Below, in pieces: positions 17,040 through 24,644 of a stretch of DNA of 32,000 bases. The notes under the pieces were generated by a model, which worked only from the letters and a program-made list of their open reading frames with translations, was not told where the DNA came from and searched no databases. Position numbers and translations under genes: made by a program. The stretch is taken from positions 1 through 32,000 of the forward strand of contig JAWOFX010000033.1 of assembly GCA_046497275.1 (NCBI GenBank). Direction: 5' to 3'. The stretch's first letter is position 1; every line of letters begins with the position of its first letter. Source of the stretch: Promethearchaeia archaeon. Lineage in GTDB: Archaea; Asgardarchaeota; Lokiarchaeia; Sigyniarchaeales; SOKP01.

Positions 17040-17840
17040 ATGCAAATTTTTGAAGCGATTGAGTTAAAGGAATTCCCATACATGAGAACTAAGGAACTTA
17101 CAAATTTACAGGAAATAAGTAAGGTTTCAGATATTATCAATGAAAATAGTCTAGAGCGAGTCTTCCTTTTAGTTGATCATGATGAGAAAAGAATTTGGTT
17201 TTACAATGGACCAAAAAGTTCATTTAAACTACAAATCTTTGGAGGAATTCTTGCTGGTGAATTGAGAAAACAACTACGTTTATTTTACAGGATTTTTTCA
17301 TTAAATCAATATAGAAAGGAAGATAAAACTTTTCAGGACGTTATGAAAAAATCTTTAGGACCAGGGAGAGCGAAGGAAATTATAGAAGACGATATCTCAG
17401 AGGAAACAATAGGGAAGTTTGAACCTCGTGAATTATCTGTTCATCCTAATCTAAAAATAAAAGATTCCCTTGAAAATGTGAATTCTTTACCTACCCCCAA
17501 TAATTTTATAAGAAAGTTTCTCATATCTGGAGTAAATATTTACACAGATGAAAAAAAAGTTAAAACCTTAATACCCGAAAAAGAAACATTTGAAAAAACC
17601 ATAAAATTAGGACAATTGAATGATGGCTTTACTTTTTTTGATGATCGGTTATACTCTACAAGAGTGATTATTAATCAAAGAAAAGTTCAAGGGATAGAAT
17701 TATATATTGATGAAGGAGATAAAAGGGAATCCATTACTTTAAACATACCTGTTCTTCCAGATGAACGAGTGGATCAGGCTAGAGATATTAATCAGTTAGA
17801 AAACGCATTTAATGTTTCAGAACGCCCGGCTAAAGAATAA
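17040..17840 (+). CDS. Divergent single gelsolin-like domain plus an uncharacterised C-terminal domain
   Basis: VFLLVDHDEKRIWFYNGPKSSFKLQIFGGILAGELRKQ follows the gelsolin strand-strand-W-x-x-x-G-x-x-S-long-helix pattern. Confidence 0.6.
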   Translation: MQIFEAIELKEFPYMRTKELTNLQEISKVSDIINENSLERVFLLVDHDEKRIWFYNGPKSSFKLQIFGGILAGELRKQLRLFYRIFSLNQYRKEDKTFQDVMKKSLGPGRAKEIIEDDISEETIGKFEPRELSVHPNLKIKDSLENVNSLPTPNNFIRKFLISGVNIYTDEKKVKTLIPEKETFEKTIKLGQLNDGFTFFDDRLYSTRVIINQRKVQGIELYIDEGDKRESITLNIPVLPDERVDQARDINQLENAFNVSERPAKE

Positions 17841-19310: not shown

Positions 19311-20609
19311 ATGCCGAAAATAGATTTTTATATCGGAGAGGCATTGATTGGAGACGCACCCAACTTGGCCCATGTAGATGTCATGGTGGGTTCAAAAGAA
19401 GGTCCTGTGGGATATGCGTTTTCTCAAAGCCTTAGTCAACCTTCGATAGGACATGGCAGTTTACTTGCTGTTATTCGCCCTAATTTAGTTCCAAAACCTC
19501 AAACGTTGATAATTCCTAAAGTTACAATTAAGAAAATGGATGAGGCTAATAAGATTTTCGGACCCGCACAATCAGCAGTTGCGAAGGCAGTTGCTGATGC
19601 TGTTGAGGAAGGAATTATCCCGATGGATAAATTAGATGATTGGGTAATAATTGTAAATGTATTTATTCATCCCGAAGGGGATGATTATAGAAAAATCTAC
19701 CAATATAATTATGGTGCGGTAAAATTGGCACTGAAAAGAGCATTACAGAATTATCCTCCTATTGAGAAAATTTTCTATGATAAAGACAGAGCAAAGCATC
19801 CTGTAGCTGGAATTAAAGCTCCTAAATTATGGAGACCTCCTTATCTTCAAGTTGCTCTTGATCATCCCTCAATAGAACATCAAAGTAAAGTTGTAGAAAA
19901 GCTTCCTAAAAGTGACAGGTTAATTTTAGAAGTAGGTACTCCTTTTCTGAAAAAGTATGGTATGGATGCTGTTAGTAAAGTACGAGAATTAGAACCAAAT
20001 AAATATATAGTCGCAGATCTCAAAACTTTAGATGTGGGAAAACTTGAGGTAGATGATGCATTTAATGCAGGAGCCGATGGAGTTGTATGTAGTGGTTTAG
20101 CCTCGCCTGCCTCCATTGATAAATTTCTTTTAGAAGCGGAGAGATTAGGGATTGATGGAATCATCGACATGATGGAGGTCCAAGATCCTGTGGAAAAATT
20201 AAAAGCTCTTAAGCAAATCCCTCGAGTAGTAATTCTTCATCGTGGTATTGATACTGAACAATCAACAGAATCTTCTGGAACGGATGAAGCACAATTGAAA
20301 AAATGGGGTTTTGTTCCGAGGATTAAAGAACTATACGCAAATAAGAAACTCGCCAGTGGAAGAGACCGTGTATTAGTTGCGGTTGCTGGAGGAATTACAC
20401 ATGAAACAGCTGAAGATGCCTTATCAATGGGTGCTGATATCCTTATTGTTGGTCGATTTATCACTTCTAGTAAAGATATTAAAAATTCAGCGAGAAGGAT
20501 AATAAATGCGCTTCCTGGTTATTCTGATATCGATTTAAAGCGCATTCATAGTGAAGACGATGATTTAGAAGCCTTAGAAAAACAATTAGAAGAGAACGAC
20601 AGCAAGTAA
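19311..20609 (+). CDS. fae-hps: Bifunctional formaldehyde-activating enzyme / 3-hexulose-6-phosphate synthase
   Basis: Fae: IGEAL.G...[29 protein letters not shown]. Hps: [35 protein letters not shown]. Confidence 0.93.
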
Positions 20610-20642: not shown

Positions 20643-20763
20643 AAACTTAGATTTAATATACTCTTTATTTGTTCTTCAATAATTTTACAAATGAGTAGGA
20701 AGATTAGCATTTTTATTGAGTGAGAAATCTAAAAAATATAAAAAAGAAAAATAATAAAAAATT

Positions 20764-23031
20764 CTATTTTATTGGTCTTGAATTTGCTTGGAAGATGGGG
20801 CCGATGAAACTGCTGTACAATTTTGCGTAAGCCTCCTGATTGCTAATAATACTAATCATGTCAGTCTCTTTATCTGTAAATGGACATATAATAACCTCCT
20901 CAGCATCGCGAGTGACTGCATAATAGTCCCCTTGTTGTGCCAATTGTCGGAATTGAATATTTCCCAATTGCTTCATTTTTCCGATTATATTACCATATTG
21001 TCCCATATCAAAATTACTCGTAAGCATGAATCTAGCGGCTTTTTTCTGAAATGCATATTCAGATATAACTTGGAGTACATCCGGAACTGGAACTGGAGTT
21101 ACAATAATTATAGACGATTTTGTTCGATATACTGCATCCTTTATCGCCGAGATCAACGCGTGCTTGCCTACTGTATGCCAAGTGGTAATTTTTGATATTT
21201 CTGGAATTGATTTAGATGCTTGAAAAATATCCATTACTTTCTCCTCATTCACTTCTCCTTTTTCTGTTGCATCATCAATTGAATTCATGAATTCTAACGT
21301 AAAATCCGCAATAGCATCTTTAATATTTTGGGTAGTCGCTTTTGTAGTGTCAGAAAGGCTGTTTTGTAATTTTGTTGCGTTATCCTTATATTTTGACTTG
21401 TGATCTTCAAGCATATTACCTAAATTTGAATTTAATTCCTTAGATTCATTATCCCATTCTGCAATATGCCCATTTATTTTATCCGATACATTTTTTTTTG
21501 CATCGCTGAATTTATAATCAACATCTTTAGTCCATGTTTCATTTTGGAGTTTAATTTCTTTATCAAATTCAGTATAATGCCCCAAACTGCCCTCTTGATG
21601 GCGATTAATAGCTTCATCATATTTTCGATGATGCTCAGCAAAAGATTTCTCAACAGAGTCCTTTAATTTAATAGTGGTATCAGAACAATCATCAATTCCA
21701 GATTTAAACGTATCATCAATTTCCACTGTAAGATCAGAAGCTAAATTCTCAAGTTGGATATCAACTTTTTCCTGTGCTTCTTGATTTAGCTCTGTTGTTT
21801 CTCCTGATAATTTATTGTTTTCATTTGAAATAATTTCAGTCAGTTCGCTTTTCACTTCATCAGTAGTACTTTTGTCGGTTGTTATGAACCCTTCACTTTC
21901 ATTAACAAAATCCTCTTTTAAAGGTTTAGAATAAGTAAGAATATCTTCTCTTACTTGAGCATAACGGGCTTTATATTTTTTATGTTGCCCAAATAGTAAT
22001 GCTTTAAAAGCAGATCCTCTACTTGCTAAATCATCAGATAAATCAGTAAAACGACCAGAAATCTCTAATAAGTTTTCTATTAATTGAACCGTTTTATTTT
22101 TAAAATCTGTTGTTTGCTTATCAACTTCTGCATGTTTCTTATTAAAAGTTGCTTTCAAATCTTCTTGCAAGACATCAGTTGTATTTTTCAGATGATTAAT
22201 ATGGCGAGTTAATAAGGTATCTATCTTATCTTTTAATTCATTGACAATCTTGTCCATCCTATCAAGATATTTTTCAAGAATCATTTCCGTTTTGGGTTTA
22301 AGCTCATTCGCTGTGGTTTTATGACGTTCTACGTGTCCATCCAAATCTTTCTTTATTTCTGTTTCTAACCCACTAATCCTATTTGAAAAATCATCTAAAA
22401 GATCTGATATGATGCCTTTTAAGTTATTTTTTGTCTGATTAATTTCATTCTCATTATTCTGCACAAAAGATTCTGAAATGTTTTTCAAATCTGTATTTAA
22501 AGAATTCATTATAGAATGAATATTAGACTCAAGATTCTTTTCTGTGTTTGTGAATCTCTCCTTAGCTCCGTTTATCCTATTTTCTTTATTTGTATTTTTA
22601 ACGTCAGAATCTTCAAAGAAACTATTAATTTGTGAACTTACTGCATTTTCCACTTTTCCAATACTCTGATTTTGAATTCCTTCAAGTTTTTCAAAACGAT
22701 TAGATTGATCTGTGAGTACTCTATCCTTAATATCAGCGATTTCTTCTCTAAATGTCTCGGACTCATTAATAAATAATTCAAAAAATGGCTCAAGAGGAAT
22801 ATATCTCGTTACAACTCCTTCAACTTCCTTAAGGAACCCCTTATCTACGAGTTTATTGGTAATCTCGACAACCCTTTCAAATTCTATTGCATTTTCATCT
22901 TCTTCTTCGAAGGAAAAATATACCTCTGAAACTGTCGCGCGAGGAACCCTAAGGTAAACTAAATAAATTTTTATATCATCTTCATCAAGACCATATCTTG
23001 TGAAGATTTTTTTTGTAAATTCTTTCAACAT
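20764..23031 (-). CDS. TrmB-like protein: N-terminal wHTH, ~520-aa hendecad helical region, C-terminal TrmB effector (PLD-like) domain
   Basis: N-term YGLDEDDIKIYL...ATVSEV...LVDKGFL...RYIPLEP. C-term TWHTVGKHALISAIKDAVYRTKSSIIIVTP...RDAEEVII. GGAG SD-like sequence upstream. Confidence 0.65.
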   Translation of the reverse strand: MLKEFTKKIFTRYGLDEDDIKIYLVYLRVPRATVSEVYFSFEEEDENAIEFERVVEITNKLVDKGFLKEVEGVVTRYIPLEPFFELFINESETFREEIADIKDRVLTDQSNRFEKLEGIQNQSIGKVENAVSSQINSFFEDSDVKNTNKENRINGAKERFTNTEKNLESNIHSIMNSLNTDLKNISESFVQNNENEINQTKNNLKGIISDLLDDFSNRISGLETEIKKDLDGHVERHKTTANELKPKTEMILEKYLDRMDKIVNELKDKIDTLLTRHINHLKNTTDVLQEDLKATFNKKHAEVDKQTTDFKNKTVQLIENLLEISGRFTDLSDDLASRGSAFKALLFGQHKKYKARYAQVREDILTYSKPLKEDFVNESEGFITTDKSTTDEVKSELTEIISNENNKLSGETTELNQEAQEKVDIQLENLASDLTVEIDDTFKSGIDDCSDTTIKLKDSVEKSFAEHHRKYDEAINRHQEGSLGHYTEFDKEIKLQNETWTKDVDYKFSDAKKNVSDKINGHIAEWDNESKELNSNLGNMLEDHKSKYKDNATKLQNSLSDTTKATTQNIKDAIADFTLEFMNSIDDATEKGEVNEEKVMDIFQASKSIPEISKITTWHTVGKHALISAIKDAVYRTKSSIIIVTPVPVPDVLQVISEYAFQKKAARFMLTSNFDMGQYGNIIGKMKQLGNIQFRQLAQQGDYYAVTRDAEEVIICPFTDKETDMISIISNQEAYAKLYSSFIGPIFQANSRPIK
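21247..21642 (-). repeat. Protein-level hendecad repeats, residues 464-595
   Basis: 12 consecutive 11-mers, e.g. FSDAKKNVSDK/INGHIAEWDNE/SKELNSNLGNM/LEDHKSKYKDN/ATKLQNSLSDT. Confidence 0.65.
22048..22509 (-). repeat. Protein-level 11-residue (hendecad) repeats, residues 175-328 of the 755-aa protein
   Basis: 14 consecutive 11-mers, e.g. LDGHVERHKTT/ANELKPKTEMI/LEKYLDRMDKI/VNELKDKIDTL/LTRHINHLKNT, with hydrophobic residues favoured at positions 1, 4/5 and 8. Confidence 0.7.
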
Positions 23032-23252
23032 AGAAATTCTCCGTCCTTCTAATTAAAATATACTATGAATATTATAAATACTGAATGATTTTTAATTATT
23101 TATTTATTAATATTTTCACTTAAAAATTTAATTTTGCCATAAAATATTCAATTTATATTCTTATAAATCGATTAATTTAATCCGATAAATTCTTCATTAT
23201 AAAAGGTAAATATTGGACTAAATTCAGAAGAAATTGGCAAAGCGAATGATCA

Positions 23253-24548
23253 TTAGATTTTAATAGTAAAATTATCAAACATTTGGAGATCTCCATATGT
23301 ACTATTAATAATTGGCATTCCCCATGCCTCTAATGAAATGATAGTGTGAGTTGTTTGCTGTATTATTTCCAAAAAACAAAAATGATGAATCTTTTCGGCT
23401 CGTGCTATATAATCATAATCATAGGTATCATAAAGAGGAGCTCCTGCTCCTCCGGATACAATATAAATCGGATCATAGAGATATTCATAATTATATTTAT
23501 CTGAATCATCAAATGTATAATTCTCAGGATCCAAACTTGATTGATTAATTATTGGATAAGATCTTTCATAATGATGATTATGTCCGGAAAATACACAAGT
23601 GACATTGTATTTTTGAAATAATGGAGGCCAATCCGTCCTATGATATATTTCAGATCGGGTTGATAATAGTGGATGATGAAGGAATACGAAATTGATTTCG
23701 TTCTCTTTAGAATATTCGTATAGTGTTTTATTTAACCAATCAGTCTGATTATCTTCTTGATATAAATCATAATATCCATTTGAATTCAAAATAACAAATC
23801 CACAATTGCCAAAGACAAAAGAATAATATCGCTTATAATCTATAAATCCAGGATATAAATTATCATACATTAAGCTACTTAGATCACCTCTTTCATGATT
23901 ACCTTCTAAAAATAAAGCAATATTATGGGAATATAACTCTTCCACATTTTCGAAATAAGTATTCCATTGAGCTTGAAATCGTCCATCAGCAACAATATCT
24001 CCCGAATGAAATGAAAAATCAGAATATTGCTCTAAAGAAAAATTATTCATTCTATTTGCTAAGGCAGTTCTATCTTCCACTTCTGTTCTTGAATCTCCAT
24101 ACACCGAAAAGCTAAAATTTTTGATATCTGTTTTATTTGGTAAGGATTTAAAAAATAAAACCTCTCTATAATTATATTTGTCAGACCTTATTCTGTAAAA
24201 ATAAGTAGAATTGGGAATTAAATCATTCAAGATAACAGCATAAGTGTGTGTATTTTGAATATTAAAATATAAAGCATTACAGGTTTTATTAATGGATAAA
24301 TCCTCATCTAAAGAATACTCCACCAATGGGTCAGTAGCATTTTTTTCTGTATACCATGAAAGAATAATAGTCCCATTAAGGTTTTGAAAAGTAGTTAATC
24401 TAATGCCTTTTGGAGTAAGTTCATCTTCTTTATAATTAGAATCATCATCTCCATCATTATTTAAACTCTGTGGAATGAGAATGAATAAATAACTCAATAT
24501 TAAGAAAAGCAGAATAATGAATCCTATAAGAGTCTTTTTATTTCTCAT
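23253..24548 (-). CDS. Membrane-anchored metallophosphoesterase (purple acid phosphatase-like with FN3-type N-domain)
   Basis: N-terminal TM helix; LSWYT...L.PNSTYFYRI; YGDSR, SGDIV, GNHE, FLHHP, SGHNHHYER, SGGAGA. Confidence 0.85.
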   Translation of the reverse strand: MRNKKTLIGFIILLFLILSYLFILIPQSLNNDGDDDSNYKEDELTPKGIRLTTFQNLNGTIILSWYTEKNATDPLVEYSLDEDLSINKTCNALYFNIQNTHTYAVILNDLIPNSTYFYRIRSDKYNYREVLFFKSLPNKTDIKNFSFSVYGDSRTEVEDRTALANRMNNFSLEQYSDFSFHSGDIVADGRFQAQWNTYFENVEELYSHNIALFLEGNHERGDLSSLMYDNLYPGFIDYKRYYSFVFGNCGFVILNSNGYYDLYQEDNQTDWLNKTLYEYSKENEINFVFLHHPLLSTRSEIYHRTDWPPLFQKYNVTCVFSGHNHHYERSYPIINQSSLDPENYTFDDSDKYNYEYLYDPIYIVSGGAGAPLYDTYDYDYIARAEKIHHFCFLEIIQQTTHTIISLEAWGMPIINSTYGDLQMFDNFTIKI

Positions 24549-24644
24549 TCTATTATTGTATTAGTTTGGCTAATATAAAAATTAAATTGAAATTCTCATA
24601 AGATAATAAAATTGATTCAACCTAAATTTATAAATTGAAAAATT

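Follow-up and report, generated by a model that had tools for sequence, protein, structure and literature searches.

The gene at positions 20764-23031 on the minus strand of the window (the whole stretch of 32,000 nucleotides analysed, from contig JAWOFX010000033.1 of a Promethearchaeia archaeon) encodes a protein of 755 amino acids that is a TrmB-family member by descent, of the TrmBL2 type, and that departs from the architecture of its family in one respect, the short linker. Members of the TrmB family, at a total of about 260-340 amino acids, have one short helix between their two domains, whereas here 525 residues (83-607) separate them; we have considerable confidence that these residues build a hairpin rod and that the two domains form a TrmB-type head on it. 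The complete reading, in which a TrmBL2-like protein has had its linker helix replaced by an antiparallel hairpin of ~520 residues in hendecad (11-residue) repeats and uses the resulting rod as a tether or spacer, is one that we believe slightly more than we doubt. The open reading frame (ORF) runs from ATG to TAG, and the interval given for it in a preliminary description, where the strand was not stated, matches exactly. Full-length homologues of 751-764 amino acids, with identities of 57-83%, correspond to the whole gene, which occurs once in the source genome, that of a Loki-type Asgard archaeon (3.85 Mb, 98.9% complete).

Residues 1-82 (positions 22786-23031, minus strand, as for all parts of the gene) form a TrmB-type extended winged helix-turn-helix (wHTH) domain, which is distinguished by an acidic six-residue insert in the turn ahead of the recognition helix. 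In the AlphaFold2 (AF2) model, the domain consists of helices at residues 2-12, 17-28, 34-42, and 51-63 and strands at 67-70 and 76-79. The Pfam TrmB family (PF01978) matches residues 12-82 of the source protein at 19.4 bits, under the cut-off of 25.6, and this cut-off is passed by the relatives P0126, P0149, and P0189. A profile made from 30 N-termini of the family aligned to residues 10-106 of TrmB (3QPH) with an E-value of 1.6e-11 and to TrmBL2 with one of 1.8e-10, and both matches rank well above those to other winged-helix proteins.

Residues 608-755 (20767-21210) constitute an alpha/beta domain of the TrmB/TrmBL2 type, with the phospholipase D (PLD) fold. Pfam found no match at the C-terminus of the source protein; Regulator_TrmB (PF11495) is matched by 12 of 51 family members, and a profile of the 51 C-terminal domains had residues 104-239 of TrmB as its best sequence match in the PDB (E 0.0046). 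Predicted alone, the domain reached a predicted local distance difference test (pLDDT) value of 96, and the model superposed best on residues 110-242 of TrmB 2F5T (Z 18.4, root mean square deviation (rmsd) 1.8 Å over 131 residues), then on 3QPH (Z 17.3) and TrmBL2 (Z 16.4), and after these on the generic PLD-fold proteins NucT, FAM83, and Zucchini. Sequence identity to the TrmBL2 domain is only 10-12%. Within the family, K638, P646, D709, and E712 are invariant, and the profile alignment places the same amino acid in TrmB opposite each of K638, N691, D709, and E712. The end of the protein corresponds to TrmB residue 242, which closes the first subdomain of the effector domain in TrmB, and the sugar-binding subdomain is therefore absent. 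The extra sugar-binding domain is found in TrmB and TrmBL1 and is lacking in TrmBL2 (PMC4877046). The preliminary description had a wHTH at about residues 1-85 and a TrmB-type C-terminal domain from about 607 to 755, and left room for the possibility that these ends are unrelated to TrmB; both in fact match it, by profile and by superposition, with the wHTH lying at residues 2-82. Its view that this is not an ordinary sugar-responsive regulator is likewise supported, by the missing subdomain.

The N- and C-terminal profiles jointly span TrmB residues 10-239 with no gap, and the ~520 additional residues are thus placed near TrmB residue 105, where the dimerisation helix ends. The first ~25 residues of arm 1 align to that helix (TrmB residues 77-106 in the N-terminal profile), but the helix here continues for 255 residues. 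TrmB itself (3QPH, 2F5T) is the best match of both terminal domains in sequence and in structure but has the second, sugar-binding subdomain, and the linker here is 15 times longer. With TrmBL2 (5BOX, 5BPD), the protein shares the extended wHTH, an amphipathic helix, the same alpha/beta C-domain, and the lack of a sugar-binding subdomain (PMC4877046), as well as strong conservation and a near-universal presence in its own lineage; TrmBL2, however, has one dimerisation helix of ~35 residues in a total of 264, and it is at that helix that the hairpin is inserted here.

AF2 run on an alignment of 42 sequences predicted a helix at residues 83-337, a loop at 338-349, and a helix at 350-607, with helix pLDDT values mostly of 75-89 and a predicted template modelling score (pTM) for the full model of 0.36. 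Arm 1 (residues 83-337; 22021-22785) is one unbroken helix of ~23 hendecads, as judged from the model, a period of 3.66 residues, and the profile alignment of its start to TrmB. Arm 2 (residues 350-607; 21211-21984) is likewise a single unbroken hendecad helix, which the model, covariation, and paired indels show to run antiparallel to arm 1, residues i and j of the two arms being opposed where i+j is ~687. A hydropathy spectrum of residues 86-606 peaked at 3.66 residues with a power of 41.9, as against a maximum of 13.2 over 200 shuffles, and the power at 3.5 residues was 0.1. Averaging hydropathy over 120 homologues raised the peak power to 52; in each arm the phase remains within some 50 degrees, and at residues 325-347 the periodic signal collapses. 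The protein thus has what defines a hendecad (11/3) coiled coil, a 3.67-residue period kept in register over many repeats. The Fourier analysis that had been proposed earlier therefore gave the period expected. Of the runs singled out as in register, residues 175-328 and 464-595 are indeed the most regular parts, but hendecads are not confined to them, and the rest of both arms follows the same period. Hydrophobic positions make up 25-29% of arm residues, a narrow stripe of a kind that suits a two-helix pair, and the rod is strongly acidic (net -35), with the tip and C-domain basic. At 0.15 nm per residue, 255 residues would give a near-straight rod of about 38 nm.

Structural superpositions provided a reading of the geometry of the model. 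Its residues 242-442 superpose on the antifreeze hairpin Maxi (4KE2; 195 of 196 residues, Z 11.1, rmsd 4.1), residues 230-452 on the chemoreceptor hairpin 3G67 (211 of 213 residues), and residues 84-612 on the PrgA stalk (6Z9L; 510 residues, Z 10.4). Maxi and PrgA, the best structure matches of the rod, are both long, straight, two-helix fold-backs, and Maxi is also made of 11-residue repeats; they are nevertheless unrelated in sequence and function, Maxi has 195 residues against the 525 of the rod, and in PrgA it is the tip, not the base, that bears the globular domain. Several of the winged-helix structure matches also include residues 604-612, and both ends of the rod are therefore adjacent in the model. 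The monomer prediction called for in the preliminary description has accordingly placed the central part of the protein on solved helical hairpins.

Pairing of the two arms was also apparent from covariation. For 120 close homologues (effective number 52), whose arms align free of gaps, mutual information with the average product correction (MI-APC) was taken for residue pairs across the two arms and averaged over lines of constant i+j. The top ten of 260 i+j values all fell within 681-694, with the maximum at 687, which is the sum of 337 and 350, the two residues that flank the loop in the model. A window 11 values wide and centred on 686 stood 5.5 standard deviations over the remainder. Parallel pairing was considered and rejected, as lines of constant j-i had no concentrated covariation peak.

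Length variation leads to the same place. Relatives of the protein carry equal insertions in both arms, after residues 165 and 514 in the alignment of the longer ones: each arm has gained 44 residues in an 848 amino acid relative, 40 in one of 835, 51 in one of 832, 62 in those of 853 and 873, 106 in one of 962, and 150 in one of 1050. Deletions are matched as well, two lineages having lost one hendecad from each arm (-11/-11), at residues 185/489 and at 291/389, and each pair sums to about 687. The inserted modules are themselves mirrored, being 44 and then 62 residues in arm 1 and 62 and then 44 in arm 2. Measured between the anchors P82, G348, and W618, arm 2 exceeds arm 1 by four residues in nearly every length class (for example, 266/270, 310/314, 317/321, 328/332, 372/376, and 416/420); the two exceptions, with differences of 7 and 12, both have short deletions in the tip loop. 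Taken together, these three independent lines of evidence (model, covariation, and indels) show that the arms pair antiparallel and in register. Two arms of ~255 residues folding back antiparallel and uniting the terminal domains is what the preliminary description had envisaged, and the superpositions, the covariation at i+j = 687, and the mirror-placed indels all lend this support. It had further expected homologues to differ in arm length by multiples of 11; steps of 11, 44, and 88 occur, but so do 40, 51, and 62, and the rule that does hold is that both arms change by equal amounts. In the 1050 amino acid relative (P0126), residues 163-250 of arm 1 are an 88-residue insertion made up of four tandem copies of a 22-residue unit in which the motif F-x-A-R-D-K/R-F recurs, which suggests that arms may grow by duplication of double hendecads.

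Covariation and paired indels would fit an intermolecular antiparallel dimer equally well. In such an extended dimer, arm 1 of one chain would lie on arm 2 of the other, giving a rod of ~76 nm with, at each end, a wHTH and a C-domain contributed by different chains and bridging two DNA segments. Both the i+j = 687 signal and the mirrored indels are blind to whether the paired arms belong to one chain or to two, and TrmB proteins are dimers or tetramers (PMC4877046). What makes this arrangement improbable in our view is the loop of 12 residues, flanked by glycines, predicted with low confidence, and tolerant of indels, that lies exactly at the midpoint. Pro/Gly loops occupy the midpoint in distant relatives too (in those of 968-1238 amino acids, breaks rich in Pro and Gly fall at most a few residues from the arithmetic midpoint), and AF2 folds the chain back, although a single-chain prediction is biased that way. 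Folding back within one chain is thus clearly favoured over pairing of two chains, because the midpoint is a short, Gly-flanked, indel-tolerant loop and the only site of the rod to vary in length among close homologues. A predicted complex of two copies of residues 215-472 (score 0.27, mark 0.42) counts neither for nor against dimerisation.

That loop (residues 338-349; 21985-22020), which we call the tip, has pLDDT values below 50 at residues 340-345 and is followed by a conserved basic run, HKKYKAR. Alignment gaps in the close family occur only at residues 42 and 340-343. In the genus-level group of the source, the tip has two glycines around hydrophobic or aromatic residues and then HKKYKAR, and in the main group of 751 amino acid proteins it has lysines, then FFWMG, and then KKKKYKAR; it contains no cysteines. 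From its composition, the tip would be fit for contact with a membrane surface, DNA, or a partner.

Symmetric indels in the two arms are a hallmark of the cytoplasmic hairpin of chemoreceptors, where they generate the length classes (PMC5907407), and their presence here raises the possibility of a signalling rod. The protein would then be a true transcription regulator, with the hairpin relaying a signal at the tip (a partner, the membrane state, or a modification) to the head by the sliding or rotation of helices, as in chemoreceptors. The polar positions of the rod are fairly conserved (0.73, against 0.85 for the core), and the soluble chemoreceptor 3G67 is among the structure matches noted above. 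Chemoreceptors, however, are built on heptads, assemble as four-helix bundles in their dimers, and carry at the tip a conserved site for CheA and CheW, none of which was found here: the period is hendecad, Pfam returned no match to the MCPsignal domain, and the narrow hydrophobic stripe is better suited to a pair of helices than to the four-helix bundle of the receptors. Nor is any known sensor or output partner encoded nearby. A signalling role is accordingly judged unlikely.

A long antiparallel coiled coil that unites N- and C-terminal parts as a head is also the plan of SMC, Rad50, and MukB, and those proteins further resemble the present one in having arms of conserved length whose two strands lengthen or shorten together. 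The differences are nonetheless substantial, in that ABC ATPase halves, Walker motifs (Walker A at the N-terminus, Walker B with the signature at the C-terminus), and a hinge or CxxC zinc hook at the tip characterise SMC/Rad50/MukB and none of these was matched here, whereas the rod here is hendecad and uninterrupted. In addition, the likeness assumes that the head is joined within one chain, while the arm pairing observed here fits one chain or two. The preliminary description had drawn the parallel with SMC and Rad50, and it is apt as far as the antiparallel arm and the united ends are concerned; it does not extend to an ATPase head, hinge, or zinc hook, for which Pfam found nothing, the termini being a wHTH and a PLD-fold domain. 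We regard the likeness as architectural only, with no sign of common descent.

Eleven-residue amphipathic repeats mediate lipid binding in apolipoproteins, perilipins, and synuclein. An apolipoprotein-like lipid binder, in which the two amphipathic helices shield one another in solution and open onto a lipid surface, would account for the top Pfam match of the protein, Apolipoprotein (PF01442, E 2.9e-9), and for the best PDB sequence match of the whole protein, ApoA-IV (E 0.0054). The PF01442 score, however, is 37.3 bits against a cut-off of 90. Apolipoproteins A-I, A-IV, and E share the 11-residue amphipathic periodicity and weak sequence similarity with the rod, but their 22-residue repeats are punctuated by proline, whereas residues 83-607 contain just two prolines (P246 and P370) with no 22-residue punctuation. 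The hydrophobic face is also narrow, the register is unbroken over 255 residues, and the paired indels indicate a constraint on each arm to pair with its counterpart. The matches thus reflect only a shared periodicity and composition, not membership, and lipid binding of this type is very improbable. Weak family matches to the exonuclease VII large subunit, V-ATPase G, ZorA, sll1863, SpiroCoCo, and Baculo_PEP_C were all far under their cut-offs and on the repeat region, and were dismissed as coiled-coil noise.

Conservation of the arms (0.81 and 0.79) is as high as that of the globular domains (0.80 and 0.84), and rod length is kept across lineages that are about 20% identical. Both features would be expected of a protein whose rods pack laterally or join at their ends to make a cytoskeleton- or lamina-like layer, with the head serving in assembly or in attachment to DNA, and TrmBL2 itself makes filaments on DNA (PMC11840125). 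The narrow hydrophobic stripe and the acidic surface of the rod nevertheless disfavour lateral packing unless counter-ions or partners are present, and we consider a filament or lattice former a quite doubtful interpretation.

The most likely role is that of a DNA-associated rigid spacer or tether, although as an assignment of function to the rod this is tentative, and it is held with far less assurance than the hairpin itself. The chromosome-tethering or membrane-binding function put forward in the preliminary description is conjectural as well. In evolutionary terms, the single amphipathic helix between the wHTH and the alpha/beta domain would have been swapped for the hendecad hairpin, which would fold back within one chain and so join the wHTH and the PLD-fold domain as a TrmB-type head at one end of the rod, leaving the short aromatic and basic loop at the other. 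The head would dimerise as in TrmB proteins and would sit on DNA with no sugar effector, as in TrmBL2, and the rod, as a rigid spacer or tether of set length, would link the DNA bound by the head to whatever the tip contacts, be it a membrane, another DNA, or a protein partner. TrmBL2, which has no sugar subdomain, is a chromatin protein that forms stiff filaments and stalls SMC (PMC4877046, PMC11840125). On what the sequence offers, we lean slightly towards DNA binding by the head, which is plausible but not assured.

Several observations weigh against this interpretation of the head, the hairpin, and the tip. The insert in the turn of the helix-turn-helix (EEEDEN, residues 42-47; positions 22891-22908), identified by alignment, is specific to the close Loki-type family and absent from relatives outside it. 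The wHTH of the source protein is acidic, with a net charge of -6 and an isoelectric point of 4.7. The first arginine of the TrmB recognition helix is present as R53 but varies among close homologues. The geometry of the model was read by way of structural superpositions at a pTM of only 0.36; the evidence for arm pairing, as discussed, suits two chains as well as one; and the aromatic and basic motif at the tip is kept in the Loki-type subfamily only and not in distant lineages. Finally, related genomes have no conserved operon partner for the gene, so genomic context gives no clue to function. The wing arginine R76 is nearly invariant in the family. As to charge, the TrmB wHTH appears, by an unverified hand count, to be near neutral as well. 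Note that an acidic insert in the turn is unusual for a helix-turn-helix that reads DNA.

A search of 1.84 billion representative proteins returned 190 matches, and all named members are from Asgard archaea (Loki, Hel, Hod, Baldr, Thor, Atabey, Heimdall, and Jord). Within the same family as the source, matches occur in 63 of 68 genomes; most are close to full length, and many are the only one in their genome. For the phylum as a whole, the figure is 199 of 301 genomes, an upper bound, since matches to a single domain (paralogues and ordinary TrmB) count towards it. Some relatives are encoded in complete, single-contig genomes, which may be those of cultured strains. Family members are 751-1316 amino acids long, with arms of up to about 540 residues (about 80 nm), and the class of ~755 amino acids recurs at about 20% identity in several deep lineages, including Heimdall- and Jord-archaea; this recurrence points to selection on length. 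Source databases name the members only 'hypothetical' or 'helix-turn-helix domain-containing', and literature searches on Asgard TrmB, coiled-coil, hendecad, apolipoprotein, or chromosome-related winged-helix proteins returned no description of the family, which appears to be undescribed so far.

The C-domain of the family also stands alone in Asgard proteins of 145-230 amino acids (P0145, P0153, P0155, P0159, P0162, and others), several of which have lysine-rich tails, and in P0162 a C-domain of this type is fused behind TPR repeats. A stand-alone C-domain was found in Sigynarchaeota. These domains are 30-45% identical to the C-domain of the rod family, nearer to it than to ordinary TrmB, and could serve as partners or competitors of the head. 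The source genome encodes three further TrmB-derived paralogues, of 676, 666, and at least 562 amino acids (C180, at L029:499-2529; C118, at L031:526-2526; and C123, at L028:25-1713, respectively). Each consists of a wHTH, a helical spacer of ~270 residues, a C-domain of the same type, a linker rich in Pro, Glu, and Lys, and a C-terminal helical domain of ~80 residues. Their spacers have a mixed periodicity of 3.5-3.7 and more Gly and Pro breaks, and some have a hydrophobic-Gly motif near the midpoint. Three paralogues with helical spacers indicate that helical inserts in the TrmB linker are a wider Asgard theme.

The rod gene stands alone in the window, with a convergent gene on one side and a gap of 221 base pairs on the other. 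Downstream is a gene for a Fae-Hps fusion (19311-20609, plus strand), which is convergent with it, and beyond the gap upstream is a purple acid phosphatase-like gene (23253-24548, minus strand). Candidate operon partners (the Fae-Hps fusion, a B12 radical SAM gene, and a surface-protein/regulator pair) are common to close kin only and are gone from distant genomes, and were put down to ordinary synteny. A further ORF of 266 amino acids (17040-17840, plus strand), with no Pfam match at an E-value of 0.001, adjoins the radical-SAM gene in related genomes too. A probable promoter and 5' end lie at 23038-23080 on the minus strand, with a TATA-like tatttataat at 23071-23080 and the upper ends of RNA-library contigs, carrying adapter letters, at 23038-23045; these ends are a weak hint of a leader of 7-14 nucleotides. 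The T-rich tracts right behind the stop codon (20731-20763, minus strand) are a probable archaeal terminator, to judge from their sequence. In this tract, three RNA-library contigs of run X6 lack one base, at 20746, which is probably strain variation or a homopolymer error.

The gene is present in twelve metatranscriptome runs of salt-lake samples. In four of these, from two studies, RNA-library contigs at 99-100% identity cover about 20776-23045 as separate pieces ending in adapter letters. The Fae-Hps gene was covered in all four runs, on contigs separate from those of the rod gene, and the next upstream region (23180-24583, containing the phosphatase-like gene) was uncovered in three of the four and serves as a silent control against DNA carry-over. 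These contigs yield no expression levels, and their lower ends (20776-20799) fall within the ORF and are uninformative on the 3' end of the transcript. Overall, the data support transcription of the gene as its own unit, with a short leader.

The TrmB family is known for small regulators that sense sugars and, in TrmBL2, for a chromatin protein that makes DNA stiffer and brings SMC to a halt. The protein described here adds to such domains a rod of fixed length that is conserved like the head, and it is nearly universal and single-copy in its Loki-type family, with members in each major Asgard lineage that the sources name. Its paired indels are an unusually clean proof, drawn purely from sequence, of a fold-back coiled coil, comparable to the length classes of chemoreceptors. 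In a more specific form of the tether, the family would be a length-calibrated Asgard device with the head on chromosomal DNA, a rod of 38-80 nm, and the tip in the membrane or on a cytoskeletal partner, holding chromatin at a set distance from the envelope. This is a long shot, but if it were true, the protein would be a functional, though not ancestral, prokaryotic forerunner of lamina- or LINC-type attachment of chromatin, and the length classes would set different spacings in different lineages. More generally, if the head binds DNA, the family would add a novel type of element to those that organise archaeal chromosomes, and would do so in the prokaryotes most closely related to eukaryotes.

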